Positions 3,697 through 62,420 of a stretch of DNA of 64,000 bases are shown piece after piece. The stretch spans positions 34,286,001 to 34,350,000 of the forward strand of contig OZ024759.1 in the NCBI GenBank assembly GCA_964016885.1, given 5' to 3'. The translations under genes and the position numbers were made by a program. Position 1 is the stretch's first letter, and each line of letters starts with the position of its first letter. Source of the stretch: Eledone cirrhosa. Lineage: Eukaryota. The notes beneath the pieces were generated by a model. That model was not told the DNA's origin. It saw only the letters and a list, made by a program, of their open reading frames with translations, and searched no databases.

Positions 3697-3767
3697 CCTC
3701 ATGACCGGGATTGAACCCAAGGCCAGGTTCTTCACTGTCTCTAGTACCTACCACTAGGCCACAGAGA
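3697..3767 (-). mobile_element. tRNA-like (pol III A/B box) module, convergent with 3554-3624
   Basis: Minus strand: TGGCCTAGTGG (A box) ... GGGTTCAATCCC (B box), followed by T-runs. Confidence 0.55.
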
Positions 3768-3949
3768 TTCGTTTGCAATTATACAAGCAAGCCTCAATTT
3801 TATAGCCATGACAGTAGAATGAACCCTTCATTTTTGCTCTTGTGTTGGCATGTGAACGTTCACATGCCAACACAAGAGCAAGAATGAAGGGTTCATTCTA
3901 CTGTCATGGCTATAAAATTGAGGCTTGTTTGCATAATTGCAAACGAATC
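3766..3949. repeat. 184-bp spacerless palindrome
   Basis: Arms GATTCGTTTGCAATTAT...GTGAAC|GTTCAC...ATAATTGCAAACGAATC, centre 3857/3858, few mismatches. Confidence 0.95.
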
Positions 3950-4002: not shown

Positions 4003-4067
<65 letters not shown>

Positions 4068-4071
<4 letters not shown>

Positions 4072-4203
4072 AGTAAGTAAGACCCCGACGGCTTGAGCTC
4101 AGCCGTCGGGGTCTTACTTACTCCTATTACCCACTCTACTGCCCCAAGTATTGAGTACTTTGGTGCGTTATGGTCCACCTGGTTCCTTACCACTTTTCAT
4201 TCG

Positions 4204-4204
<1 letters not shown>
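4068..4204 (+). mobile_element. (TA)n-embedded fold-back element, family A (putative Penelope-like terminus)
   Basis: Inverted repeat 4068-4126 then tail TATTACCCACTC...GAGTACTTTGG...CCTTACCAC into (TA)n; homologous to 5432, 47421, 47951, 52882, 54489. Confidence 0.7.
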
Positions 4205-4325: not shown

Positions 4326-4522
4326 TTATATTAATAAAAGGAATTCCAACTTTGTCTGATTTAGTCGTTATATTTACAATCCTTTAAAATTTATAATTGT
4401 ATTAGAATGAAATAGTATTTAATATTCTACCATACTATTTCATTCTAATACAATTATAAATGTTAAAGGATTGTAAATAAAACGGGTAAATCAGACAAAG
4501 TTGGAATTCCTTTTATTAATAT
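4326..4522. repeat. ~90-bp-arm inverted repeat between (GA)n and (TA)n
   Basis: TATTAATAAAAGGAATTCCAACTTTGTCTGATTTA... vs ...TAAATCAGACAAAGTTGGAATTCCTTTTATTAATA. Confidence 0.9.
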
Positions 4523-4809
4523 ATATATGTATATATATATATGTGTATATATATGTGTATATATATATATGTATATATATATGTATATATATTTGTATAT
4601 ATATATATATATGTATATATATATGTATATATATATATGTATATATGTATATATATATGTATATATATATGTATATATATATATATATGTATATATGTAT
4701 ATATATGTATATATATATGTATATATATATGTAAATATATATATATATGTATATATATATGTATATATATATATATATGTAATTATATATATATGTACAT
4801 ATATATATG

Positions 4810-5380: not shown

Positions 5381-5431
<51 letters not shown>

Positions 5432-5434
<3 letters not shown>

Positions 5435-5619
5435 CCAGTAAGACCCCGACGGCTGAGCTCAAGCCGATTCGACGGCTAATTTTGGACTGAATTAGCCGTC
5501 GAAACGGCTTGAGCTCAGCCGTCGGGGTCTTACTGATTCCTATTACCCACTCTACTACCGTAAGTATTGAGTACTTTGGTGCGTTATGGTCCACCTGGTT
5601 CCTTACCACATTTCCTTCG

Positions 5620-5621
<2 letters not shown>
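5432..5621 (+). mobile_element. Family A fold-back element (longer inverted arm)
   Basis: Inverted repeat 5432-5539, same tail with GAGTAC at 5569, (TA)n on both sides. Confidence 0.7.
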
Positions 5622-5666
<45 letters not shown>

Positions 5667-5727
5667 AAAAAGTATGACCCCGACGGCAGATCTCAAGCCG
5701 TTTCGACGGCTATTTCTGGAGTCCAGA

Positions 5728-5870
5728 ATCCCACCGAGCTTAGCTTTGCCTATTATCCTTACTGGGATCGATATAAAATAAAGCACTAGTTACGCACTGG
5801 GGTCGTATAATCGACTTTTCCCTCACCCAAATTGTTAATATTTTGCCCATAGTAGAAATCCTTATTCTTA
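5728..5870 (+). mobile_element. Degenerate 5'-truncated SINE (long-tail form)
   Basis: AATCCCACCGAGCTTAGCTTTGCC...GATCGATATAAAATAAAGCACTAG...CACTGGGGTCG matches the SINE core. Confidence 0.7.
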
Positions 5871-5898
5871 TTATTATGTTGTATTGTGGTGGATTGCT

Positions 5899-6090
5899 GG
5901 TGGATTGGGAGTATCAGTAGAGGCTCGGATACCATACTATGCAGCATAGAGTTACGCCTCTTTACGAACTGAGTTCAAATCCCGCCGAGGTTAACTTTGC
6001 CTTTCCTCCTTACGTGGTCGATAAAATAAAGTACCAGTAATACACTGGGTCATTGTTGGCCTTGTGCCAAAAGTAGAAACAATTATTATT
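5899..6090 (+). mobile_element. tRNA-derived SINE (octopod-type, Nin-domain-like core)
   Basis: A box/B box (GAGTTCAAATCCC), core GAGGTTAACTTTGCCTTTC...GTCGATAAAATAAAGTACCAG, tail GGCCTTGTGCCAAAAGTAGAAAC(AAT/TAT)n; many copies in window. Confidence 0.9.
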
Positions 6091-6275
6091 ACTATCTTGT
6101 ATTGTCGGCCCTTGTAGCCAATCAATGGAAACATTATTTGACCTTCTTCCAAGATATAGCCTCTAGTTGAACACCTGCCTCCTTCTCATCAACATTTTCG
6201 TCTTTCATATTGTCAGCACTACAATTCTAGCTACGTGTTAGCAGGTGAAAGTCTAGCAGCAGCAACAGCAGCAGC

Positions 6276-9676: not shown

Positions 9677-10020
9677 TGAATCATTCACGTATTTAATTCC
9701 CACACGTCTGTATAGCACAAACTTCTATCCACTGTATGACAGATGCATAATTACTTAGTAGCTCCCCTCCACATCTAACGCCACTCCAAGAATGACCACC
9801 ACTACAAGCATTACCACCAACTACAACAACAACGCCAACAACATGCCACATCCTGCTATGATGTTACTTGTGGAAATGGAGATATCTTTATGTGGTTTAC
9901 AAGCATATAATTACGATTGTCTTGCACGTGTAATGCCGCTCTTTTAATATCCTGCTGTAATAATGCCAACAGCCATACTATAAAGATGCATGTTCTAATT
10001 ATATATATATATATATATAT

Positions 10021-10321
10021 AGTATAAAAGAGAAAACACAGGTAAGCATTAAGAGAAGGGTTTTATCCAGATATTTACGACCGTTTCATTGGTAAGTGCA
10101 ACCTTATATTGCTACACTGCAAATAGCGGTCGTAAATACCTGGATAAAATCCTTCTCTTAATGCTTACCTGTGTTTTCTCTTTTATACTTTATACTCCAA
10201 GATTGAACGGAATTCTTACAAACTTGTCGAGTTACCCCTAACCGTACGTTGAAACCGTCCATGAAACTGGCTTTCTTAACCACGAAGTGGATCACAATAA
10301 GCAATTTTCTGCTTCCCTAAC
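10021..10321 (+). mobile_element. (TA)n-embedded fold-back element (putative Penelope-like terminus)
   Basis: Arms 10021-10083 / 10127-10189; GAAACGGTC on the minus strand of the left arm; TATACTC...GAGT in tail; (TA)n flanks. Confidence 0.65.
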
Positions 10322-10584: not shown

Positions 10585-11038
10585 GCAGAACTGGTGAGAA
10601 ATCTGCAGATACTCCACCCTGATTACACCTTCAGATTTATACATGTGATTATTGGGGCACTGGGATATGTTAGTAACTCCCTGAATACAAATCTTGAGAA
10701 GCTAGGCTTCACAGGAACAGAAAGAATACAACTAGTTAGGAAATTACAAGTACAATCCATTAATGGAACAGTAAAATTATGTAAAACATTCCAAAAATTG
10801 TGCATTTAATAACTGCATATACACATGTACAGATACAAAGCATATGCACTTGCACACATACAACTCAAAACATCCACATCCACACATATAATAACATCCA
10901 TATCTACACATGCAGACATACATATCTACCTAGTTGATGTTGTGTAAATTCCAATGAGAGAGTCTTGTGGCTATGTTAGAAACCGACTCTCTCTCTATTG
11001 GGAAAAATAATTTGTGAAATTATGAAACCAGAAGAACA
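10582..11038 (+). mobile_element. 3' fragment of R4/Dong-like (restriction-like endonuclease) LINE with 3' UTR
   Basis: YAELVRNLQILHPDYTFRFIHVIIGALGYVSNSLNTNLEKLG...LQVQSINGTVKLCK* matches the KY.L...(P)IVIGALG...LQK..L.GT..I C-terminus; flanked by (CATA)n. Confidence 0.8.
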
Positions 11039-11067
11039 TATATACATATACATACATATATATACAT

Positions 11068-11672
11068 GGTGGCTGCCAACTCGTTTTCGAATCCGGCCAC
11101 TACTTTATATCCAAGTAGGAGAACCCCTACCGATGTGTTGAACGAATGTGACTTTTTAGGCCAGCCAGCGACTTGAAAACTCTGTTACAAACACTACACT
11201 TGTGACAATTATTGACACATAGTGTTAGGCGCATGGTACCATGTGACGACAAGTGCAGAGAGATCTCCAGATATAAAGCAATGCATGTGCCGTGAAGCTT
11301 TTATAGTGAGCAAAGGCACTGCACAAAGCCAGTCCCACTCTCTTAACCAAGATGGTATTACCAAAAAGAAGAACAAGTCAACATCATTGGATACCATCAG
11401 AGGTGCAGGTGTTATATCAGTTTTCCTTCTCCTAGAATTCTGCCTTGACAAAGGCTAAGGGGTAATCTCTCCCGGTGATTTTGGATGGCCATTGACTCTT
11501 AAGAGCTCCTTTTCCCTTTGACAGGTTTTGTTTTTAGTCCTGCAGGATGTCCAAAGTCACCCTCCTCACCAAGAAACCTTGGTGGGGTTGCTAGTTTAGT
11601 CGCCAACGACCCGACCATGGGACAGGTTGTACTGGGATACATGTTACCAGTAGCACCAACTGGTGACCTGAC
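11068..11672 (-). mobile_element. Non-autonomous RTE-derived element (5' UTR-like part + ORF-terminal C2H2 zinc finger)
   Basis: 11204-11127 encodes HKCSVCNRVFKSLAGLKSHIRSTHR*; copies at 35192, 35729, 54607 share the same left (3') end and are variably 5'-truncated. Confidence 0.75.
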
Positions 11673-18082: not shown

Positions 18083-18087
<5 letters not shown>

Positions 18088-18230
18088 GTGGTTACACAAC
18101 AGTTAGTTCACCATACCGAGAAACAATTGTTCTCGGTATGGTCAAGTAACTGTTGTGTAACCACTTCTACCTAACTCGTCCCATGGACTGAGTGCTCTAC
18201 CACTACAGATATTACCTTCCAGTGTTCCAC

Positions 18231-18233
<3 letters not shown>
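18083..18233 (+). mobile_element. (TA)n-embedded fold-back element
   Basis: Inverted repeat 18083-18169 centred on ACAATTGT, tail AACTC...GAGTGCTC (18190), ends in (TA)n. Confidence 0.7.
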
Positions 18234-18302
<69 letters not shown>

Positions 18303-18306
18303 ATAT

Positions 18307-18491
18307 TAATTGTTTCTATTTTTGGCACAAGGCCAGCAATTACTCAGTGTATTACTGGTACTTTATTTTATCGACCCCGTCAGGATGAAAGGCAAAGTTA
18401 ACCTGATTTGAAATCAGAATGGCAAGGGCCGTAACTCTATGCCTAAAAGCATGGCGTCCGTCCCTCTACCGATACTGCCAATCCACTGCCC
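18307..18491 (-). mobile_element. tRNA-derived SINE
   Basis: Reverse complement of the SINE consensus (TTTGGCACAAGGCCAGC...CGACCCCG..GGATGAAAGGCAAAG). Confidence 0.9.
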
Positions 18492-18578
18492 TTATATATT
18501 AATATATATATATATATATATATATTATAGATACACATAATTATTAAACATATATATATATAAATATATTATATATAC

Positions 18579-19467: not shown

Positions 19468-19801
19468 ACAGAAATAATTAAGTGCTGAATAGATCGTTTC
19501 TTACATTTGATAGGTAATTTCAATGTGTTCTTTGTGTAAAAGTTTCACCGTTCAGTTTACATTACTGGTGAGACGAAACTCGTTTAATCCATGACAGAAA
19601 AAGAATTTAATTAGAAATTGCGAATTAATTTATAAAGTTAATAATTCCTTGTTGAGTGTTTAGGTTTGAGTGAAACCTACAATATGTCTATTATAAATTC
19701 GATAATATATATATGTAAGTATCTATCTATCAATATATAGATACATAGATATATATATATAGATAGAATGTGTGTGTATGTGTGTTTAAACTGATATGTA
19801 T

Positions 19802-19974
19802 ATATCACATAAGAAGCGGAGAATCAGTGGTGCGACGAAAAAAAATGATTAGACATATTACAATCGTTTCCAATAAATGTTTTTCGTCGCGCCACTGATT
19901 CTCGGCTCCTTATGTGATATTATACTCTGCATCGAGTGCTCAAACGGACTACCGCTTACGCATCCCACAACAAT
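19802..19974 (+). mobile_element. (TA)n-embedded fold-back element
   Basis: Arms 19802-19843 / 19880-19920, tail TATACTCTGCATCGAGTGCTCAAACGG; related tail at 28251-28330 (-). Confidence 0.7.
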
Positions 19975-24228: not shown

Positions 24229-24248
24229 TTCCTATTATTCTACGATAT

Positions 24249-24436
24249 GGGGCGTGGATTGACATTATCGGTAGAGGGTCGGACGCCATGCTTTGCAACA
24301 ATGAGTTACGGCCCCTTATGGTCTGATTTCAAATCCTGCCGAGGTTAACTTTGCCTTTCATTCTTACGGGGTCGATAAAATAAAGTACTTGTAATACACT
24401 GGGATAATTGCTGGCCTTGTGCCAAAAGTAGAAACA
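24249..24436 (+). mobile_element. tRNA-derived SINE with 14-bp TSD
   Basis: Full SINE; ATTATTCTACGATA at 24234-24247 and 24437-24450. Confidence 0.92.
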
Positions 24437-24812
24437 ATTATTCTACGATAGAATTTTTGTTGTGGATGTACTTATAAATAATTCCATTCCAGTCATATAA
24501 ATTGTTTAAAACCAAAAATAATATTTTTTTTCTTTACACCGCAATTTTAACTTAAGAAAACTTTGGTTGTGAATTATCCCCAAAATTATTGGTCAGCCTT
24601 GAGCAATTTCCTTTAATTTCACACAGCTTTACTAACTAATTGCTCACACAACATTCGTCATCTCTCTCTCTCTTCCGCTCGCTCTCTCTCCCTCACTCTC
24701 TCTCTCTCCTTATTTTACTCCCCACTGTCTTCCACATTTCTTAAAGTCATTATGTCTCTCGTTCTTTCTCTCTCGCATTTTGACTCTGTCTCTACATCTC
24801 TCTCTTTCGCTT

Positions 24813-25588: not shown

Positions 25589-25651
25589 AATTTCCCCTCC
25601 CCCCAAATTGCTGGTCTTGTGCCTATATAAGAAACCATTATTATTATTATT

Positions 25652-25832
25652 GTCAGTATCGGTGGAGAGTCGGACGCCATGCTTTCCAGCATAGTTACGT
25701 CCCTTTACGATCTGAGTTCAAATCCCGCCGAGGTTGACTTTGCCTTTCATCCTTACGGGGTCGATAAAATAAAGTACCAGTAATACACTGGGTAATTGCT
25801 GGCCTTGTGCCAAAAGTAGAAACAATTATTAT
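25652..25832 (+). mobile_element. tRNA-derived SINE (preceded by a SINE tail fragment 25590-25645)
   Basis: Match to the SINE consensus. Confidence 0.9.
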
Positions 25833-26084
25833 TATTATTGTTGTTGTTGCTGTTGTGTTGTTGTCGTCGCTAAAACGAACGCCTCGCATACGTTTGTTTC
25901 ATGAATTTGTCAACTATTTTCACGCCTTTAAAATGTGTTTTTCGTGTAGAAAGTTCCAATATCGTTTTCTGGTTCACAAGAATGTTAGAGAATCTGTTGG
26001 TTTAACCTCAATATTCAGCAGTTAAGAGAGAAAATCTGGGTTTAACTCGGGAATACAGGCCTCGCGACATTTTATTACTATCTA

Positions 26085-26668
26085 GCAGTGGATTCGCAGT
26101 ATCGGTAGAGGGTCAGACGTCATGCTTTCCAGCATAGAGTTACGTCCCTTTATGATCTTAGTTCAAATCCCGGCGAGGTTAACTTTGCCTTTCAGCCTTT
26201 CGGGGTCGATAAAATAAAGTACCAGACAGGCACTGGGGAGGATTCATTCGACTTACCCCTCCCTCAAATTTGCTGCCCTTCGGCATATATAAGAAACCAT
26301 TATTATCTAAGACGCCATGCTTTGACGCATAGAGTTACGGCCCTTGCTATTCTGAGTTCAAATCCCGCCGAGGTTAACTTTGCCTTTCATCCTTACGGGG
26401 TCGATAAAATAAAGTGCCAGTAATACACTGGGTAATTGCTGGCCTTGTGCCTAATGTAGAAACAATTATTATCTAAGACGGTGGATTGGCAGAATCGGTA
26501 GATCGTCAGACACCATGCTTTGTAGCATAAAGTTATGGCCCTTTACAATCTGAGTTCAAATCACACCGATATTAACTTTGCCTTTCATCCTTACGGGGTC
26601 GATAAAATAAAGTACCAGTAATACACTGTTAATTGCTGGCCTTGTGCCAAAAGTAGAAACAATTATTA
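26085..26668 (+). mobile_element. Three head-to-tail SINE copies
   Basis: Copies ~26085-26305 (long tail), 26310-26470, 26478-26668; junctions share ATTATTATCTAAGACG. Confidence 0.9.
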
Positions 26669-26714
26669 TCTTTAAAAAAACATGGTGGCAAAACAAATTT
26701 AATCCTCAAAGAAG

Positions 26715-28020: not shown

Positions 28021-28182
28021 ATATACAATGATATTAAATAAATGGAAACCATATTTATAAAACCATATTTATATGGTTTCCATTTATTTGATATGATTGT
28101 ATATTATACTCTAGAAAACTTGTTGAGTGCTCTGATTCAGTTATAAACATTTATATTTGTTGAATTACAAACAAAGTGTCTG

Positions 28183-28186
<4 letters not shown>
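28021..28186 (+). mobile_element. (TA)n-embedded fold-back element
   Basis: Arms 28021-28054 / 28071-28104, tail TATACTC...TTGAGTGCTC (28125); related to 28560-28785 and 53298-53701. Confidence 0.7.
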
Positions 28187-28450: not shown

Positions 28451-28586
28451 AATGAAATTGAAAGATAAGAGAAGCTGAAGGAAATGGGAGAAAATGAGTT
28501 TTGAAAAATTATTTTCACTATCTTCAATGAACTTCTAACATGAAGTTCACATAAAGATATGCCACTATCTTTACACAAATTATTGC

Positions 28587-28645
28587 ATTTTATCAGACGA
28601 AAGCTTACTAAAATATTGGTACCCTTGAAATACTTATAATAAAAT
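28587..28645 (+). ncRNA. Degenerate minimal hammerhead ribozyme motif
   Basis: ATTTTAT-CAGACGA-AAG..CTT-GAAA-TACTTATA-ATAAAAT; homologous to 53615-53683 but with the core U4 changed to A. Confidence 0.5.
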
Positions 28646-29242
28646 AAATATGGTTTTATAAATATATTTTCCATTTATTAATATTATTGATATCAATTAT
28701 ACTCGGGAAAAAGTCGTTGAGTGCTTCTAATCTGTTATAAATTAACTTTGTTGAATAATTAACAAACCAAATAACTCATTGTTTATATATATATATATAT
28801 GATAGTATGGGGGGGGGGACTGTTGTCTTCGTTGTGTTTGTATTACTGACATAGTTGTTTAAACATTCTGCGCTGGTAGATATTGTTCAATAGTCTGTTT
28901 TTTCATGTCCGATTTCGTAGATTTCCTATTGGATAACTACGGCCTGACCTATAATACTAGTTTCAAATAATATAACGTTCATTTGATCTTAGATTCACCA
29001 TGGCGTCTCAAGTATCAATGTTAATAGCTGTATGACTATCTCTGAGGTTGATGACATCCTGTTCGTGTCACCAATACACAGTCCTTGGGGCTATTATCTC
29101 AGACGTTGTTTCAAGCAACTAACAGTGTAAAACCTAACACTTACTCGTTTCATTTTTACGACACTGTAACCGGTTCCTGAGCCACACCCACCGGATGTAG
29201 TAGATATATATGTTATCTCGGAGGCGCCATCATAATTGCTGG

Positions 29243-29862: not shown

Positions 29863-30188
29863 TTATTTCCTCTGAATTGTAAAGCTTGTGTGAAAAACAA
29901 GACAAACACATATCAGACGCAAAGTCTAAAATGAAATACGTCATTTCACAAAAACAAAAAACATTTCAAAACATTAGTAATTAGTTGTAAAGATTTTCTC
30001 GTCTTTAACTCATTGTGTCTTCCGTGTTAAATACTAAATAAGTGTTTGGTATTTCAATCTTATCTCAGTCACCAACGAAAGGACGTAAGTAGCCAAAGGT
30101 GGGAAGGAAGGAAGTAGGAACGCTAGATAATATACCAGATCTCCTTCGCTTAAAGGGTGTGGTGCTGGTGGTGCGGACTCGGGAAAAC

Positions 30189-33100
30189 GGACCAAGGAGA
30201 CAATGTTTCCATTGGTCTTTCTATTGCTGATACTATCTGTTGGTAAACAGATCGGACCAAGGAGACAATGTTTTTTCCATTGGTCTTTCTATTGTTGATA
30301 CTATATGTTGGTCAACAGATTGGACCAAGGAGACAATGTTTCCATTGGTCTGTCTATTGCTGATACTATCTGTTGGTCAACAGATTGGACCAAGGAGACA
30401 ATGTTTCCATTGGTCTTTCTATTGCTGATACTATCTGTTGGTCAACAGATTGGACCAAGGAGACAATGTTTCCATTGGTCTTTCTATTGCTGATACTATC
30501 TGTTGGTCAACAGATTGGACCAAGGAGACAATGTTTCCATTGGTCTTTCTATTGTTGATACTATATGTTGGTCAACAGATTGGACCAAGGAGACAATGTT
30601 TCCATTGGTCTTTCTATTGCTGATACTATCTGTTGGTCAACAGATTGGACCAAGGAGACAATGTTTCCATTGGTCTTTCTATTGCTGATACTATCTGTTG
30701 GTCAACAGATTGGACCAAGGAGACAATGTTTCCATTGGTCTTTCTATTGCTGATACTATCTGTTGGTCAACAGATTGGACCAAGGAGACAATGTTTCCAT
30801 TGGTCTTTCTATTGTTGATACTATCTGTTGGTCAACAGATTGGACCAAGGAGACAATGTTTCCATTGGTCTTTCTATTGTTGATACTATATGTTGGTCAA
30901 CAGATTGGACCAAGGAGACAATGTTTCCATTGGTCTTTCTATTGCTGATACTATCTGTTGGTCAACAGTTGGACCAAGGAGACAATGTTTCCATTGGTCT
31001 TTCTATTGTTGATACTATATGTTGGTCAACAGATTGGACCAAGGAGACAATGTTTCCATTGGTCTTTCTATTGCTGATACTATATGTTGGTCAACAGATT
31101 GGACCAAGGAGACAATGTTTCCATTGGTCTTTCTATTGCTGATACTATATGTTGGTCAACAGATTGGACCAAGGAGACAATGTTTCCATTGGTCTTTCTA
31201 TTGCTGATACTATCTGTTGGTCAACAGATTGGACCAAGGAGACAATGTTTCCATTGGTCTTTCTATTGTTGATACTATCTGTTGGTCAACAGATTGGACC
31301 AAGGAGACAATGTTTCCATTGGTCTTTCTATTGTTGATACCATCTGTTGGTCAACAGATTGGACCAAGGAGACAATGTTTCCATTGGTCTTTCTATTGCT
31401 GATACTATATGTTGGTCAACAGATTGGACCAAGGAGATAATGTTTCCATTGGTCTTTCTATTGCTGATACTATCTGTTGGTCAACAGATTGGACCAAGGA
31501 GACAATGTTTCCATTGGTCTTTCTATTGTTGATACTATCTGTTGGTCAACAGATTGGACCAAGGAGACAATGTTTCCATTGGTCTTTCTATTGCTGATAC
31601 TATATGTTGGTCAACAGATTGGACCAAGGAGACAATGTTTCCATTGGTCTTTCTATTGCTGATACTATCTGTTGGTCAACAGATTGGACCAAGGAGACAA
31701 TGTTTCCATTGGTCTTTCTATTGTTGATACTATCTGTTGGTCAACAGATTGGACCAAGGAGACAATGTTTCCATTGGTCTTTCTATTGTTGATACCATCT
31801 GTTGGTCAACAGATTGGACCAAGGAGACAATGTTTCCATTGGTCTTTCTATTGCTGATACTATATGTTGGTCAACAGATTGGACCAAGGAGATAATGTTT
31901 CCATTGGTCTTTCTATTGCTGATACTATCTGTTGGTCAACAGATTGGACCAAGGAGACAATGTTTCCATTGGTCTTTCTATTGTTGATACTATCTGTTGG
32001 TCAACAGATTGGACCAAGGAGACAATGTTTCCATTGGTCTTTCTATTGTTGATACCATCTGTTGGTCAACAGATTGGACCAAGGAGACAATGTTTCCATT
32101 GGTCTTTCTATTGCTGATACTATATGTTGGTCAACAGTTGGACCAAGGAGACAATGTTTCCATTGGTCTTTCTATTGCTGATACTATCTGTTGGTCAACA
32201 GATTGGACCAAGGAGACAATGTTTCCATTGGTCTTTCTATTGCTGATACTATATGTTGGTCAACAGATTGGACCAAGGAGACAATGTTTCCATTGGTCTT
32301 TCTATTGTTGATACCATCTGTTGGTCAACAGATTGGACCAAGGAGACAATGTTTCCATTGGTCTTTCTATTGTTGATACTATCTGTTGGTCAACAGATTG
32401 GACCAAGGAGACAATGTTTCCATTGGTCTTTCTATTGTTGATACCATCTGTTGGTCAACAGATTGGACCAAGGAGACAATGTTTCCATTGGTCTTTCTAT
32501 TGCTGATACTATATGTTGGTCAACAGTTGGACCAAGGAGACAATGTTTCCATTGGTCTTTCTATTGTTGATACCATCTGTTGGTCAACAGATTGGACCAA
32601 GGAGACAATGTTTCCATTGGTCTTTCTATTGTTGATACTATCTGTTGGTCAACAGATTGGACCAAGGAGACAATGTTTCCATTGGTCTTTCTATTGTTGA
32701 TACTATCTGTTGGTCAACAGATTGGACCAAGGAGACAATGTTTCCATTGGTCTTTCTATTGTTGATACCATCTGTTGGTCAACAGATTGGACCAAGGAGA
32801 CAATGTTTCCATTGGTCTTTCTATTGCTGATACTATATGTTGGTCAACAGTTGGACCAAGGAGACAATGTTTCCATTGGTCTTTCTATTGTTGATACCAT
32901 CTGTTGGTCAACAGATTGGACCAAGGAGACAATGTTTCCATTGGTCTTTCTATTGTTGATACTATCTGTTGGTCAACAGATTGGACCAAGGAGACAATGT
33001 TTCCATTGGTCTTTCTATTGTTGATACCATCTGTTGGTCAACAGATTGGACCAAGGAGACAATGTTTCCATTGGTCTTTCTATTGCTGATACTATATGTT

Positions 33101-34692
33101 GGTCAACAGTTGGACCAAGGAGACAATGTTTCCATTGGTCTTTCTATTGCTGATACTATCTGTTGGTCAACAGATTGGACCAAGGAGACAATGTTTCCAT
33201 TGGTCTTTCTATTGCTGATACTATATGTTGGTCAACAGATTGGACCAAGGAGACAATGTTTCCATTGGTCTTTCTATTGTTGATACCATCTGTTGGTCAA
33301 CAGATTGGACCAAGGAGACAATGTTTCCATTGGTCTTTCTATTGCTGATACTATATGTTGGTCAACAGTTGGACCAAGGAGACAATGTTTCCATTGGTCT
33401 TTCTATTGCTGATACTATCTGTTGGTCAACAGATTGGACCAAGGAGACAATGTTTCCATTGGTCTTTCTATTGCTGATACTATCTGTTGGTCAACAGATT
33501 GGACCAAGGAGACAATGTTTCCATTGGTCTTTCTATTGCTGATACTATCTGTTGGTCAACAGATTGGACCAAGGAGACAATGTTTCCATTGGTCTTTCTA
33601 TTGCTGATACTATCTGTTGGTCAACAGATTGGACCAAGGAGACAATGTTTCCATTGGTCTTTCTATTGCTGATACTATCTGTTGGTCAACAGATTGGACC
33701 AAGGAGACAATGTTTCCATTGGTCTTTCTATTGCTGATACTATCTGTTGGTCAACAGATTGGACCAAGGAGACAATGTTTCCATTGGTCTTTCTATTGCT
33801 GATACTATCTGTTGGTCAACAGATTGGACCAAGGAGACAATGTTTCCATTGGTCTTTCTATTGCTGATACTATATGTTGGTAAACAGATTGGACCAAGGA
33901 GACAATGTTTCCATTGGTCTTTCTATTGTTGATACTATATGTTGGTCAACAGATTGGACCAAGGAGACAATGTTTCCATTGGTCTTTCTATTGCTGATAC
34001 TATCTGTTGGTCAACAGATTGGACCAAGGAGACAATGTTTCCATTGGTCTTTCTATTGTTGATACTATATGTTGGTCAACAGATTGGACCAAGGAGACAA
34101 TGTTTCCATTGGTCTTTCTATTGCTGATACTATCTGTTGGTCAACAGATTGGACCAAAGAGACAATGTTTCCATTGGTCTTTCTATTGTTGATACTATAT
34201 GTTGGTAAACAGATTGGACCAAGGAGACAATGTTTCCATTGGTCTTTCTATTGCTGATACTATATGTTGGTAAACAGATTGGACCAACGAGACAATGTTT
34301 CCATTGGTCTTTCTATTGCTGATACTATATGTTGGTCAACAGATTGGACCAACGAGACAATGTTTCCATTGGTCTTTCTATTGCTGATACTATATGTTGG
34401 TAAACAGATTGGACCAACGAGACAATGTTTCCATTGGTCTTTCTATTGCTGATACTATCTGTTGGTCAACAGATTGGACCAAGGAGACAATGTTTCCATT
34501 GGTCTTTCTATTGCTGATACTATATGTTGGTCAACAGATTGGACCAACGAGACAATGTTTCCATTGGTCTTTCTATTGCTGATACTATATGTTGGTAAAC
34601 AGATTGGACCAACGAGACAATGTTTCCATTGGTCTTTCTATTGCTGATACTATCTGTTGGTCAACAGATTGGACCAAGGAGACAATGTTTCC
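30189..34692. repeat. 65-bp tandem satellite, ~69 units
   Basis: Unit GGACCAAGGAGACAATGTTTCCATTGGTCTTTCTATTG(C/T)TGATACTAT(C/A)TGTTGGTCAACAGATT; near-identical units, no spacers. Confidence 0.99.
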
Positions 34693-34837: not shown

Positions 34838-35191
34838 GTAATTCGATAAATCGATAGGTGAGAGAGCGATGGATCATTAGCAATATAGACATATTTATTA
34901 ATCGATAGATAGATAGATAGAAAGATAAATAGATAAAATTTATTTTTCAGTCTATAGATGTTTAATGATGAGAAAAGAAAAGAAGCAAATGAGTCCAGAA
35001 TTGCAAGATGAAGGGAAACAATATAGAGACAAGGAGAAAATGGAGGATATTCACATCTCTTTTATATCAGATCTGGTATTTTAATGGTACGTGGAGAAAG
35101 TTTACTTTTTGATGCTCAGAATATATTTGAGATGCAAACAAACACATACATACATATATACACACATACCTAAGATCATATATACATACAT

Positions 35192-35510
35192 GGTGGCTGC
35201 CAACTCGTTTTCGAGTACGGCCCCTACTTTATATCTATGTAGGAGAACCCCTACCGATGCGCTGAACAAGTGTAACTTTTTAGTCCAGCCAGCGACTTGA
35301 AAACTCTGGTACAAACACAACACTTGACAATTATTGACACATAGTGCTGGGCCAATGGCACCATGTGACGACAAGTGCAGAGAGATCTCCAGATATAAAG
35401 CAATGCCTGTGCCGTGAAGCTTTTATAGTGGGCAAAGGCACCGCACAAAGCCAGTCCCACTCTCTTAACCAAGATGATATTTACCAAAAAGAAGAACAAG
35501 TCAACATCAT
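35192..35510 (-). mobile_element. RTE-derived non-autonomous element, 5'-truncated, with TSD-like flanks
   Basis: Homologous to 11068; CCVCTRVFKSLAGLKS; ACATACCTAAG(A/G)TCATATATA at 35164 and 35521. Confidence 0.85.
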
Positions 35511-40568: not shown

Positions 40569-40690
40569 TGTTTCATATAGAAATGGCTTCGACAGAACTA
40601 GAACTGTTTCATCCAAAATAATCATCAGGTCTTTCCTGATGAATACTTTTAATGAATCAGTCCTATAGAAGCCATATCGATATTAATAAT

Positions 40691-40866
40691 TTTGGCACAA
40701 GGCCAGCAATTACCCAGTGTATTACTGGTACTTTATTTTATCGACCCCGTAAGGATGAAAGGCAGAGTTAACCTCGGCGGGATTTGAACTCAGACCATAA
40801 AGGGTCGTAACTCTATGCTGTAAAGCATGGCGTCCGACCATCTACCGATACTGCCAATCCACCGCC
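40691..40866 (-). mobile_element. SINE with ~19-bp TSD inserted into a fold-back element
   Basis: CCATATCGATATTAATAAT at 40672-40690 and 40866-40884. Confidence 0.92.
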
Positions 40867-40966
40867 CATATCGATATTAATAATGATGTTTACACACTAC
40901 TAATGTATTGAATGCCTTACCCACGATTTAACACGAGACTCACAAGTACACACACACACACACACA

Positions 40967-41221: not shown

Positions 41222-41421
41222 NNNNNNNNNNNNNNNNNNNNNNNNNNNNNNNNNNNNNNNNNNNNNNNNNNNNNNNNNNNNNNNNNNNNNNNNNNNNNNN
41301 NNNNNNNNNNNNNNNNNNNNNNNNNNNNNNNNNNNNNNNNNNNNNNNNNNNNNNNNNNNNNNNNNNNNNNNNNNNNNNNNNNNNNNNNNNNNNNNNNNNN
41401 NNNNNNNNNNNNNNNNNNNNN
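41222..41421. other. Assembly gap (200 N)
   Basis: Run of N followed by >700 bp of TA-rich repeat. Confidence 1.
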
Positions 41422-45224: not shown

Positions 45225-45344
45225 TACCGATAGATAGTATTAGCAACTGGAAAGACCAATGGAAACATCGTTACCTCGGTCCGATTTAACGAGCTCCACC
45301 ACACTCGTTGAGTGAATGAGGTCTGCGATCTTGTCGATCGACAG

Positions 45345-47422: not shown

Positions 47423-47500
47423 CGAAGGAAATGTGGTAAGGAACCAGGTGGACCATAACGCACCAACGTACTCAATACTTAGGGTAGTAGAGTGGGTAAA
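47421..47500 (-). mobile_element. Family A tail-only copy
   Basis: ACGAAGGAAATGTGGTAAGGAACCAGGTGGACC...GTACTCAATAC...GAGTGGGTAA. Confidence 0.8.
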
Positions 47501-47950: not shown

Positions 47951-48077
47951 TAGCGGTCGAAACGGCTTGAGCTCAGCCGTCGGGGTCCTACTCGTTCCCA
48001 TTACCCACTCTACTACCCTAAGTATTGAGTACTTTGGTGCGTTATGGTCCACCTGGTTCCTTACCACATTTCCTTCG

Positions 48078-48079
<2 letters not shown>
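47951..48079 (+). mobile_element. Family A copy without inverted arm
   Basis: GTCGAAACGGCTTGAGCTCAGCCGTCGGGGTC...GAGTACTTTGG...TTCCTTCGT(TA)n. Confidence 0.8.
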
Positions 48080-50759: not shown

Positions 50760-51224
50760 AGGGCAGTTGATTTACAGTTATCTGTAGAGCGTCGGATAAC
50801 ATGCTTCGTGGCATATAGTTACGGCCCTTTACTCTTCAAGTTCAAATCCTGCCGAAGTTATCTTTGCTTTTCGTCCTTACGAAATATTGGCTCGAAATAT
50901 TCGACATTTCCGACTCCCTCAAATTGTTGGCCTTGTGTCTAACTAGGGAACTATTATGAAGGAGTTCAAATCCTGCAGATATTAGCTTTGTCTTTCATTC
51001 GTATGGGGTCGATAAAGTAAAGTACATGTTATACACTGGTATCGATTCCATCGATTTTCCCCATTCCCCTACCCCCAAAATTGATGCCCTTGTGTGTAAA
51101 TCAGAAACCATTATAAATATCTCTGATTTTGACTTTGCCTTTCATCCTTACGGGGTCGATAAAATAAAGTACCAGTAATACACTGGGTAATTGCTGGCCT
51201 TGTGCCTAAAGTAGAAACAATTAT
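50760..51224 (+). mobile_element. Cluster of three SINE copies/fragments
   Basis: ~50760-50945, 50960-51112 (long tail), 51130-51224 (short tail). Confidence 0.8.
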
Positions 51225-51234
51225 TTGTAAGTGG

Positions 51235-52827: not shown

Positions 52828-52880
<53 letters not shown>

Positions 52881-52881
52881 A

Positions 52882-53024
52882 TAGGAAAAGGTATGACTCC
52901 GACGGCAGAGCTCACACCGTTTCGACGGCTATTTCTGGACTAAATTAGGATTTTTAGCCTAGTAAATAAATAGCCGAACTTATCAAGGGGTACTTTGTCC
53001 ATCTGGTTCCTTACAATTCCTTCG

Positions 53025-53082: not shown

Positions 53083-53297
53083 ATGGGAAGAAAGAGGAAA
53101 ACTGCGTGGTTGCACATGGGTTACATATTATAAAATTAGTCCCTCATCAGTGATTTGCCAACCATCATTGGTATTTCATCGCATTAAAAATCAGATACCT
53201 CAGGTTGGTGCGAGCAATAACTAAAATATGCTATTGGGACAAGTGAATCGCGTAAAGCGAGTGAGACAAGTAAATATATATATATATATATATATAT

Positions 53298-53701
53298 TTA
53301 AAAGTTAAACAGGTTCAATGAATAAATCAAAGAATGAATTTTACAATAGATTGGAAGCACTCAACCGTAGAGGTTTTCCATAGTTATTAATATTAATTAA
53401 AAATATTAACAAAACAGATATTCTTGTGATCAAATATATTTTATTATACATATTTCAGAGGTACTGAGTTAACTTCAACAGTACGTCCTCATCAGATTAA
53501 ATAAGATGATGCATGACATATCCTGACATAGTAGATGGTTAAGATTCAGTCGTGGTAGTACTACCAAGATTGAATCTTAACCATCTACTATGTCAGGGTA
53601 TGTCATGCATCATCATATTTTATCTGATGAGGACGTACTGTTGAAGTTAACTCAGTATCTCTGAAATATGTATAATAAAATATACTTGATCACAAGAATA
53701 T
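53298..53701 (-). mobile_element. (TA)n-embedded 284-bp palindrome plus tail (putative Penelope-like terminus)
   Basis: Palindrome 53418-53701 centred 53559/53560; minus-strand tail CCTCTACGGTTGAGTGCTTCC (53362-53357) runs into (TA)n. Confidence 0.75.
53615..53683 (+). ncRNA. Minimal type I hammerhead ribozyme (mirror copy 53436-53504, - strand)
   Basis: Stem I ATATTTTAT/ATAAAATAT, core CTGATGA (53624-53630), stem II with GTACTG/CAGTA(T/C), GAAA (53663-53666), short stem III ATA-TG-TAT, predicted cleavage after AUA at 53674. Confidence 0.7.
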
Positions 53702-53868
53702 ATATATATATATATATTGTTATACTTGGGGAGGGTCATATTGTTATAATATTGCCAGAAATAATAACATAACACACTCACTATTTGGTTGGTTTTCGCT
53801 TCTATATCTTTTATACCTCCATAGTGAATTTATTTGCCAATCAACGTTTATCATTGATTGACCAACGG

Positions 53869-54490: not shown

Positions 54491-54564
54491 CGAAGGAAAT
54501 GTGGTAAGGAACCAGGTGGACCATAACGCACCAAAGTACTCAATACTTAGGGTAGTAGAGTGGG

Positions 54565-54568
<4 letters not shown>
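54489..54568 (-). mobile_element. Family A tail-only copy
   Basis: Same as 47421-47500, (TA)n on both sides. Confidence 0.8.
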
Positions 54569-54606
<38 letters not shown>

Positions 54607-54608
<2 letters not shown>

Positions 54609-55004
54609 TGGCTGCCAACTCGTTTTCAAGTACGGCCACTACTTTATATCCATGTAGGAGAACCCCTGCCGATGCGCTGAACGAGTGTGACTTTTTAATC
54701 CAGCCAGCGACTTGAAAACTCTGGTACAAACACTACACTTGTGACAATCATTGACACATAGTGCTGGGCCCATGGTACCATGTGAGGACAAGTGCAGAGA
54801 GATCTCCAGATATAAAGCAATGTCTGTGCCGTGAAGCTTTTATAGTGAGCAAAGGCACTGCACAAAGCCAGTCCCACTCTCTTAACCAAGATGATATTTA
54901 CCAAAAAGAAGAACAAGTCAACATCATTGGATACCATCAGGGTTGCAGGTGCTATATCAGAGTTTTCCTTCTCCTAGAATTCTGCCTTTGCAAAGGCTAA
55001 GGGG

Positions 55005-55005
<1 letters not shown>
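54607..55005 (-). mobile_element. RTE-derived non-autonomous element, 5'-truncated
   Basis: High identity to 11068-11462; flanked by (TA)n. Confidence 0.85.
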
Positions 55006-55045
<40 letters not shown>

Positions 55046-58740: not shown

Positions 58741-58789
58741 GTTTACAAATGCTGACCTAGTTGAATTTGCTAGTATGAAATTGTTTCAT

Positions 58790-58976
58790 TGATTGGCAGT
58801 ATCGGTAGAGGGTCGGACGCCATGCTTTGCAGCAAAGAGTTACGGCCCTTTATTGTCTGAGTTCAAATCCCGCCGAGGTTAACTTTGCCTTTCATCCTTA
58901 CGGGGTCGATAAAATAAAGTACCAGTAATACACTGAGATAATTGCTGGCCTTGTGCCTAAAGTAAAAACAATTATT
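58790..58976 (+). mobile_element. tRNA-derived SINE
   Basis: Near-consensus full copy. Confidence 0.92.
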
Positions 58977-60340
58977 TCATTAAAAGGTGTCGATGTTGCT
59001 GTTGTTGTTACTGTTGTTGTTGTTGATGCTACTGTTGTTGTTGTTATTGATGTTGTTGTTACTGTTGTTGTTGATGTTGTTGTTACTGTTGTTGTCGATG
59101 CTACTGTTGCTGTTACTGTTGTTGTTTTGACATTTTATTCTTGTTGAAGTTACCGGCGTATTATGCCTGTTGTTGTTGTTGGTGTCGTCATCCTCCTTCT
59201 CCTTCTCCTTCTTCTTCTCCTTCTTCCTCTTCTTATCGTTCTGTTGTTGCTGTTGTTGTTTCTGGAACTCTATTGGATTCACTGTTGCAAAAGTAATTAG
59301 GTCAATATGTGTGTGTAACAATATTTTGTGTTAGTGGATGTGTGTGTATGTATATTAGATGGTGTATATATATATATATATACAGCCTCTAATATATATA
59401 TATATTAGAGGCTGTATATATATTTATATATATATATATACAGCCTCTAATATATATATATATATTAGAGGAAGTGTCTGTATATATCAGAGACTGTGTA
59501 TATTTGTCTGTGGATGTCTGAGAGAGAGAGAGAATGAGTCAGAGATAGAAAGTGGGAGATGGAGGGAGATAGAGAGAATGAGAGAGAGAGAGAGAGGAGG
59601 GAGAAGGTGAAAAAGAGAGAGAGTGAGAGGAGAGAGAGAGGGGGGTAGATCGTGTGATTGTACGCGTGTGGTTCTTTGTTAAAGAATGGATTATGAGAAT
59701 TGGCTTCGTTAATAATTGCTGTCGTGTATGGAAGATTATCAGCATCGTAGTCAGAGAAAGTGAGGGAAAGAAGAAGAAGAAGAAATGGGTTCAGAAGCAG
59801 AATAAAAGGGGGAAATTGGGGAGAGACAGTCAAAGGATAAACAGAGACAGATAGATGGATAGAGAGAGAGATGGAAGTAGAGAGATAGATGAGATAGATG
59901 GACAGATAAATAGATATATGGATAGATAGAAAGTTATATAGCTGGACAGATAGATAGGTAGGTAGATAGATAGATAGATATATTTCTTTATTTGCCACAA
60001 TGGCGCACAAGATAAGGGGACAGACAATACAAAGACATAATAGATAGATACATATATAGGTATGTAGGTAGGTAGGTAGGTAGGTAGATATACAGACAAA
60101 CAGAAGCAGATTTGACAGTGGCTATACTGGAGAAACGTCTTCTAGAGATGATAGTCGTTCATATTGCTTTTATTTGTTGCCAAGATTCCTACATGTTATC
60201 AATCTCTGTTTACAAACCGTCAAAGACAGAGATACTCGGTGGAGCGAGAATATACGTATTTGTCAAGCGATGTACAAGACTACATAACTATACATACTTT
60301 TATACTGAAAGGCACCGAACGTCAACATCTATATGAAATT

Positions 60341-60635
60341 GGTGGAATGGCAGTATCGGTAGAAGGTCGGACGCCATGTTTTGCAGCAAAGAGTTACGGC
60401 CGTTTACGGTCTGAGTTTAAAATCCCGCCGAGGTTAACTTTACCTTTCATCCTTACGGGGTCGATAAAATAAAGTACCAGTAATACACTGGGATAATTGC
60501 TGGCCTTGTGCCAAAAGTAGAAACAATTATTATATCTTATTTGAAACTTGGAAGGCGGGCTGCAAGTAATCGGTAGAGCGTCGAACAACATGATTTGTGG
60601 CATAGAGTGTCATCCCATTACGTTCTGATTTCAAA
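60341..60635 (+). mobile_element. tRNA-derived SINE followed by a SINE head fragment
   Basis: Full copy 60341-60532; head 60553-60635. Confidence 0.88.
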
Positions 60636-62312: not shown

Positions 62313-62415
62313 TAGTTCGTTCGACAACAAATTAGCAAAACATATCCGAATATGTTTTGTTAATTTCTTGTGGAACTATCTCTATACCGAACTCGTACTG
62401 AGTGCTCTACTAACT

Positions 62416-62420
<5 letters not shown>
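62313..62420 (+). mobile_element. (TA)n-tailed fold-back element
   Basis: CAAATTAGCAAAACATAT-CCGA-ATATGTTTTGTTAATTTC inverted repeat, tail GAACTCGTACTGAGTGCTCTAC similar to the 18083 element. Confidence 0.65.

Follow-up and report, generated by a model that had tools for sequence, protein, structure and literature searches.

Introduction

Insertions of Penelope-like elements (PLEs), in the sections of Craig et al. (2021; PMC8557442) consulted here, combine an inverted 5'-truncated copy, a tail at one end only and a microsatellite target with a bias towards (TA)n. Head-to-head repeats with palindromic junctions have also been described, and self-priming was proposed for them (PMC3846280, Arkhipova et al., in the part consulted). 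For PAc, the green anole's Poseidon element, the excerpted experiments of Frangieh et al. (2024; PMC11167929) report a protein that nicks and extends both target strands, with two internal start sites.

Dual hammerhead ribozymes of PLEs lie on opposite strands, 100-700 bp apart, and their cleavage is weak and dimer-dependent (PMC4209133, Cervera and de la Pena 2014, as excerpted); cleavage as dimers is likewise covered in the consulted part of a review (PMC6765202). The PAc hammerhead depends on the protein; insertion in vitro does not require this hammerhead, and, in the excerpts concerned, RNA-seq shows no ends where it would cut (PMC11167929). Mirrored hammerheads on opposite strands are known by-products of PLE insertion (PMC4209133 and the PMC8557442 supplement, both in the parts consulted), and in one member of the Hydra clade, Penelope-13_HM, the target is (TA)n, a 5'-truncated copy stands inverted, and the same hammerhead is given for either strand (entries in the PMC8557442 supplement).

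Here, we analyse an insert at 53298-53701 of a 64-kb window (the whole stretch of DNA under study), in which two mirrored hammerhead motifs are embedded in a palindrome. We argue that it is very probably a dead-on-arrival insertion of the 3' end of a hammerhead-bearing PLE, probably of a (TA)n-targeting kind (e.g., the Hydra clade), composed of a 5'-truncated copy and its inverted 5'-truncated twin.

Structure of the insert

The window, to judge by its SINE perhaps from a cephalopod genome, is AT-rich and microsatellite-rich, and it is non-coding around the insert. Neither an RT nor a GIY-YIG family was recovered by Pfam in the window frames (0/135; 135 of the 179 filtered frames, tandem-repeat duplicates being left out), among which the only matches were C2H2 zinc-finger fragments and two weak ones. 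A 200-N assembly gap (41222-41421) is distant from the insert.

The insert is asymmetric, with a long arm of 262 bases and a short inverted arm of 142 bases. The short arm (53560-53701, plus strand) and the paired part of the long arm (53418-53559, minus strand) meet head to head, with no spacer, at 53559/53560, and together form a palindrome of 284 bases (53418-53701; fold z-score -32.6 against 100 shuffles). Its 142-bp arms match at 135 of 142 pairs and differ at seven, which bears out the spacerless 284-bp palindrome of an earlier, sequence-only reading of this DNA. The remainder of the long arm (53298-53417, minus strand) is an unpaired 3' extension of 120 nt (the tail), which terminates at the distal 3' end of the repeat family and carries, 66 nt from that end, the motif TGAGTGCT (53356-53363, minus strand), common to six of the seven other fold-back tails in the window. 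The insert is bordered on its tail side by (TA)n (53274-53297), likely the insertion target, into which other copies likewise pass from TTTAAA, and on its short-arm side by (AT)n (53702-53717), likely the second half of the target. The possibility that the short arm terminates at the cleavage site was rejected, since the arm stops 27 nt past the predicted cut, its final ATAT overlapping the (AT)n tract.

On the plus strand, the type I hammerhead motif (53615-53683) has a stem I with 9/9 pairs (53615-53623/53675-53683), the ninth of which depends on 53615, a position that differs from the other arm. The core segments CTGATGA (53624-53630) and GAAA (53663-53666) enclose stem II (53631-53640/53653-53662), which has a G.U closing pair, one C.C mismatch and, at 53658, a G-C pair changed to G.U. 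They are followed by a short stem III (ATA-TG-TAT, 53666-53673) and an AUA triplet, with a predicted cut after 53674. The core lies 198 nt from the distal 3' end on the sense strand (sense being defined by the hammerhead itself). These parts and the cut position agree with the sequence-only reading, and its recognition of a short, near-palindromic stem III (the dimer type) linked to PLEs is supported as well. The mirror hammerhead that it placed on the minus strand is indeed present (53437-53503; core 53495-53489, cut site 53445), with the two cores starting 129 bp apart, but its stem I is broken by an A.A mismatch at 53498, a change private to that arm.

A type I descriptor (CUGANGA, GAAA and UH around three stems) matched at two places only in the 64-kb window, compared with 0.06 matches per shuffled window (100 block-wise dinucleotide shuffles). 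The description of the motif as 'canonical-looking' holds for the core letters and fails for the Rfam hammerhead models, none of which matched in scans of the insert; what these scans did return were sub-threshold miRNA and snoRNA matches, attributable to hairpins and microsatellites, and an identity with MIR7994 was rejected (60 bits, 100 needed). A metagenome scan with a 23-nt core motif gave 0 matches, and the main text of an Octopus vulgaris repeat paper contains no mention of the strings hammerhead, ribozyme or palindrom. Judged by its sequence, the family appears to carry a conserved hammerhead variant missed by Rfam, distinguished by the AUA triplet, an AT...AT stem III and the retained C.C mismatch.

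Comparison with described elements

The PLEs of the Hydra clade, in the published entries compared, share with the insert a (TA)n target, a type I hammerhead situated about 90-210 nt from the 3' end and a short stem III with a 1-3-nt loop. By our own count of the Hydra rows, a U precedes GAAA in 18/26 and an A occupies the cut site in 12/26, and the insert has both. The G.U closing pair recurs in the entries for Penelope-13_HM and Penelope-17_HM, and in the former an inverted 5'-truncated copy likewise results in one hammerhead per strand. In addition, four of the six new Hydra consensus 3' ends (as given in the entries compared) carry, by eye, GAGYAST, which is near the tail motif of the insert. 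The two differ in stem III, which is AC...GT in 26/26 of the Hydra rows and AT...AT (with the AUA triplet) in the family of the insert, and in stem II, which in the insert spans 10 bp and includes the C.C mismatch; moreover, four insert motifs of 17-18 nt had no exact match in the portion of the PMC8557442 supplement that was compared. Since a preference for (TA)n or other microsatellites is also found in Naiads and Neptune, it is not diagnostic of the Hydra clade. Considering target, hammerhead position and style, and the tail motif matched by eye, the Hydra clade seems to be the nearest described match, a placement made on nucleotide features; at the protein level the clade is set apart by RWK, DKT and CxCX5C motifs, the lack of CCHH and its RT phylogeny.

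The general PLE unit (a pLTR, an adjacent inverted pLTR and an optional tail; excerpts of PMC3846280 and the legend of Fig. 2 in PMC8557442) has the same head-to-head copies with a palindromic junction, the same tail at one end and, within a microsatellite, the same lack of a discernible TSD. The insert differs from it in being an end module only (no ORF), in its longer tail (120 nt vs 30-40 nt) and in its zero spacer. In the excerpts of PMC4209133, PLE hammerheads show the same type I topology, long stem II, small near-palindromic stem III and dual copies on opposite strands; measured against them, the insert represents a small-helix-III variant and not a strict min-HHR, its G10.1 pairs with U instead of C, and its stem I is longer (8-9 bp). 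The PAc element, as excerpted from PMC11167929, resembles the insert in its AT-rich target, and its two RT start sites define a tail; its hammerhead overlaps the ORF start, whereas no such overlap is evident at the insert. The inverted junctions are left without explanation in the consulted portion of that study.

Copies of the family in public runs

We surveyed the family by aligning four public runs to 53298-53590 at 80% likeness; two other runs, X7 and X8, contained small shares. Two of the data sets, X1 (2074 contigs) and X9 (2439 reads), belong to one species, the richest in the family, and X6 (8 contigs) belongs to another; X5 provided two short pieces that were less than 90% alike and were excluded from the counts. 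Around the centre of the palindrome the summed X1 depth fell from 67,101 (53548-53557) to 7,540 (53558-53567) and 1,077 (53568-53577), figures in which aligned depth does not equal copy number and the likeness filter favours intact copies. At 53559 we recorded loose ends leading, over the 30 letters visible, into AT-rich, non-palindromic sequence (11 contigs in X1, 204 reads in X9, 1 contig in X6), and at 53311/53314 loose ends in which TTTAAA gives way to (TA)n (19 contigs in X1, 213 and 224 reads in X9, 1 contig in X6). The 3' end of the family is therefore fixed, on (TA)n, and the present copy is 5'-truncated at the centre. As most of the family sequence continues past the centre in a non-palindromic manner, the fold-back is a property of the present copy and not of the family.

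The centre itself is not purely random, since other copies fold at or near it: a minority of those in X9 (46 of a depth of about 305, 3 starts, at least 9 other differences) and 8 contigs in X1. At 53570 in X9, the perfectly pairing letter is found in 40/48 reads (3 starts). These copies are what could be expected of a non-autonomous palindromic mini-element that acts as a fold-back master, is copied by the PLE machinery and passes on its centre by inheritance. We regard such a master as unlikely, given that the depth past the centre amounts to 1.6% (X1) or 15% (X9, few loci) of that just before it, a share that may be underestimated because contig assembly handles palindromes poorly, and given that other centres exist. 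Opposite-strand joints were registered at 53462/53496 (1 contig) and 53413/53444 (54 reads, 1 start), and a relative at 28021 folds elsewhere. As for a templated palindrome at the centre, none follows from the main loose ends, and one of 2 bp would follow from a minority form (agreement 0.62).

To read the variation within the family we used 40 of the 87 variant rows, which cover 35 positions; with 53570 left out (as lying beyond the centre), the remaining positions divide into 7 near-fixed differences private to the present copy and 27 polymorphisms. Among the variant rows listed, the 55 positions of core and stems contain none of the 27 polymorphic positions (P = 0.0012) and, within the arm only, none of 14 (P = 0.0007); three lie in the 12-nt loop II. 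Conservation of CTGATGA and GAAA across copies, whose absence would have counted against the sequence-only reading, is what the listed rows display. Departures are rare: an insertion in stem II at 53464 (21/1040 X9 reads), a decayed core in a loose end at 53468 (6 X1 contigs), and one X6 contig that keeps CTGATGA and has a different stem II. The pattern of substitutions suggests that the ribozyme is conserved in the source elements and not in the present copy.

The window holds two relatives. The first (28555-28790, plus strand; 70% over 131 columns) is diverged and not palindromic; its hammerhead core has decayed (CAGACGA), it carries the tail motif of the insert, and it ends on (TA)n. Compared with the insert, its stem II displays three compensatory (both-side) changes and keeps the C.C mismatch, a covariation drawn from three sequences, two of which are the arms of one insert, with one of the three changes depending on gap placement. 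The second (28021-28185, plus strand), 76% alike to the first, consists of an 84-bp fold-back downstream of the hammerhead position and an 81-nt tail.

Decay of the arms and the transcript

Four private changes were counted in each arm, none of them compensated (unlisted positions being read as family-like); because one site is changed in both arms, differently, the 4 + 4 changes yield the seven mismatches. The arms (8/284) and the tail (4/120) do not differ in their load of private changes (P = 0.76), and two of the eight arm changes hit structured positions, against 39% expected (P = 0.34). Of these two, the change at 53498 (where 1013/1027 X9 reads have the pairing letter) disrupts stem I in the minus copy, and that at 53658 makes stem II of the plus copy weaker. 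The arms decay independently and at the same rate as the unpaired tail, and nothing maintains the duplex.

These observations bear directly on the potential self-silencing switch put forward in the sequence-only reading; in a selected form of it, the palindrome would be preserved for the masking of the ribozyme in read-through RNA, with cleavage by shorter transcripts. The masking stands as a prediction: the duplex would be very stable (MFE -218.8 kcal/mol) with the core fully paired (each of its 11 positions at a pairing probability of 1.0), and inverted Penelope copies in Drosophila do produce siRNAs that stem from the inverted regions (PMC3681739, in the part consulted). The switch itself finds no support, as the palindrome is not the normal form of the family (mostly non-palindromic at the centre), the seven mismatches are uncompensated, the arms decay like the tail and each hammerhead copy has received one weakening change. 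Modelled alone, without the other arm, the hammerhead seldom adopts its active fold (1.6e-5 for the plus and 8e-5 for the minus copy, from nearest-neighbour energies that ignore tertiary contacts). Furthermore, on either strand the hammerhead resides in the second-transcribed arm, so the masking arm is made first and read-through would have no 'on' state; the mirror copy, being antisense on any one transcript, cannot be a dimer partner. In the same excerpts on Drosophila, the siRNAs from inverted Penelope did not silence efficiently (PMC3681739). We therefore consider selection for such a switch very improbable. Modelled folding indicates that read-through RNA would form a 142-bp hairpin devoid of an active ribozyme and could do no more than supply small RNAs passively; passive dsRNA from the insert is, by analogy, a possible outcome, of a known kind and not new.

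Origin of the insert

A type I hammerhead inside a short non-coding unit would also fit a non-LTR retrozyme or a hammerhead satellite monomer, which a later DNA rearrangement could have inverted, and retrozymes have been described as PLE derivatives (bioRxiv 10.64898/2026.07.22.740005, in the part consulted). We find this origin just as hard to credit as the switch, because the window contains an inverted pair only and no head-to-tail tandem, the 3' end of the family on (TA)n is fixed, and the arm-plus-tail layout recurs in unrelated families. Zero-spacer palindromes are a typical shape of chimeras and no aligned piece covers the whole stretch, yet an assembly or library fold-back artefact can be practically dismissed, given that the arms differ at 7 sites, each with the family letter where the other arm is private, that the flanks differ, and that raw reads of another individual cross a similar centre.

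EN+ PLEs, in turn, are defined by an ORF for a telomerase-like RT and a GIY-YIG endonuclease; of their other features, the insert shows 5' truncation with a fixed 3' end, a sense-strand hammerhead near that end, in the terminal repeat, and an inverted 5'-truncated copy joined head to head with a tail at one end only. We reason that the mirrored hammerheads and the palindrome are likely an ordinary head-to-head PLE stump in a TA repeat, and the presumed tie to an autonomous PLE is an analogy of layout only. In such an insertion, the element protein would nick both strands of the (TA)n tract and reverse transcription would be primed from each, as published PLE biochemistry suggests. One cDNA may start at a distal point on the RNA (53298) and the other at a proximal one (the equivalent of 53418), and the two could then be joined at 53559/53560; alternatively, a single cDNA may prime itself. 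If the ribozyme ever acted, it would have been in source-element RNA, as a dimer or with the help of protein. Read as a PLE stump, the insert is one more dead PLE end, and it cautions that hammerheads mirrored within a perfect palindrome can be by-products of insertion.

Fold-back inserts elsewhere in the window

Eight fold-back-plus-tail inserts were picked by hand in the window, including that at 53298-53701; they come from several families, between which BLAST found no similarity. The other seven (4067-4204, 5428-5620, 10016-10321, 18083-18233, 19798-19974, 28021-28185 and 62319-62419) all end in (TA)n. The layout is shared by all eight, with a short inverted arm and a longer arm bearing a 43-127-nt tail that ends in (TA)n, which is also present at the short-arm end in 6/8. 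The motif YGAGTRCT, that is GAGT(A/G)CT preceded by a pyrimidine, occurs in 7/8 tails, 21-66 nt from the end (21-62 nt in the other six); it has 15 matches in the window against 7.4 expected, and was defined after the tails had been viewed.

A second family is represented at 52879-53021 (minus strand), where a motif resembling a hammerhead, its core of the U3-A8 type (TTGATAA from 52986), was read by eye. This motif has a long stem II and a palindromic stem III loop, and its MFE fold is without the full three-stem form. The inverted arm and the tail adjoin at GTAC (4 bp, 52990-52993), without overlap and with the middle part missing, a junction that looks like twin priming with a deletion (two-strand priming). 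Among the fold-back inserts, the fold of the copy at 4067 falls on the stem III loop of this second family's motif, and that of the copy at 5428 within loop II of the motif. Further truncated copies were noted at 47423-47499, 47951-48078, 54491-54569 and 5662-5729, some of them comprising only the tail.

It is possible, although on balance doubtful, that twin priming by a PLE dimer has left its record in this genome's fold-back inserts. Both (TA)n strands would prime, the proximal and distal starts would flank GAGT(A/G)CT (which would be the binding element of the protein), and the cDNAs would join at self-complementary spots, often the hairpins of the ribozyme. If so, the second-strand step, which is still unsolved, could be read from the palindromes, and the genome would offer many natural junctions on which to test how PLEs make inverted copies, a matter left open by published work. 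A literature search combining Penelope-like with twin priming retrieved no paper on PLE junctions, as judged by titles and abstracts.

Additional repeats

Two further near-perfect palindromes, in which no tail motif or hammerhead was identified, are located at 3766-3949 (184 bp, 97%, zero spacer) and 4327-4523 (197 bp, 91%). Read inward from its (TA)n end, the fold-back arm at 10022-10060 presents TATAAAAG followed by ACAG-GTAAG, a TATA-box-like and 5'-splice-site-like arrangement that may be due to chance. A repeat of ~430 bp occurs three times (11038-11466, 35150-35510 and 54567-55008; 90-93% alike) and includes, in a minus-strand frame, a single fragment of a C2H2 zinc finger (11130-11300, Pfam E 9e-6). 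A tandem array with a 65-bp period extends over about 30170-34690, with a single related unit near 45226-45302. Finally, a SINE-like repeat of ~190 bp, which we take to be the octopus SINE, is present in many copies that are 75-95% alike (5898-6095, 18302-18503, 24233-24469, 25591-26677, 40687-40883, 50760-51225, 58774-59005 and 60332-60635).
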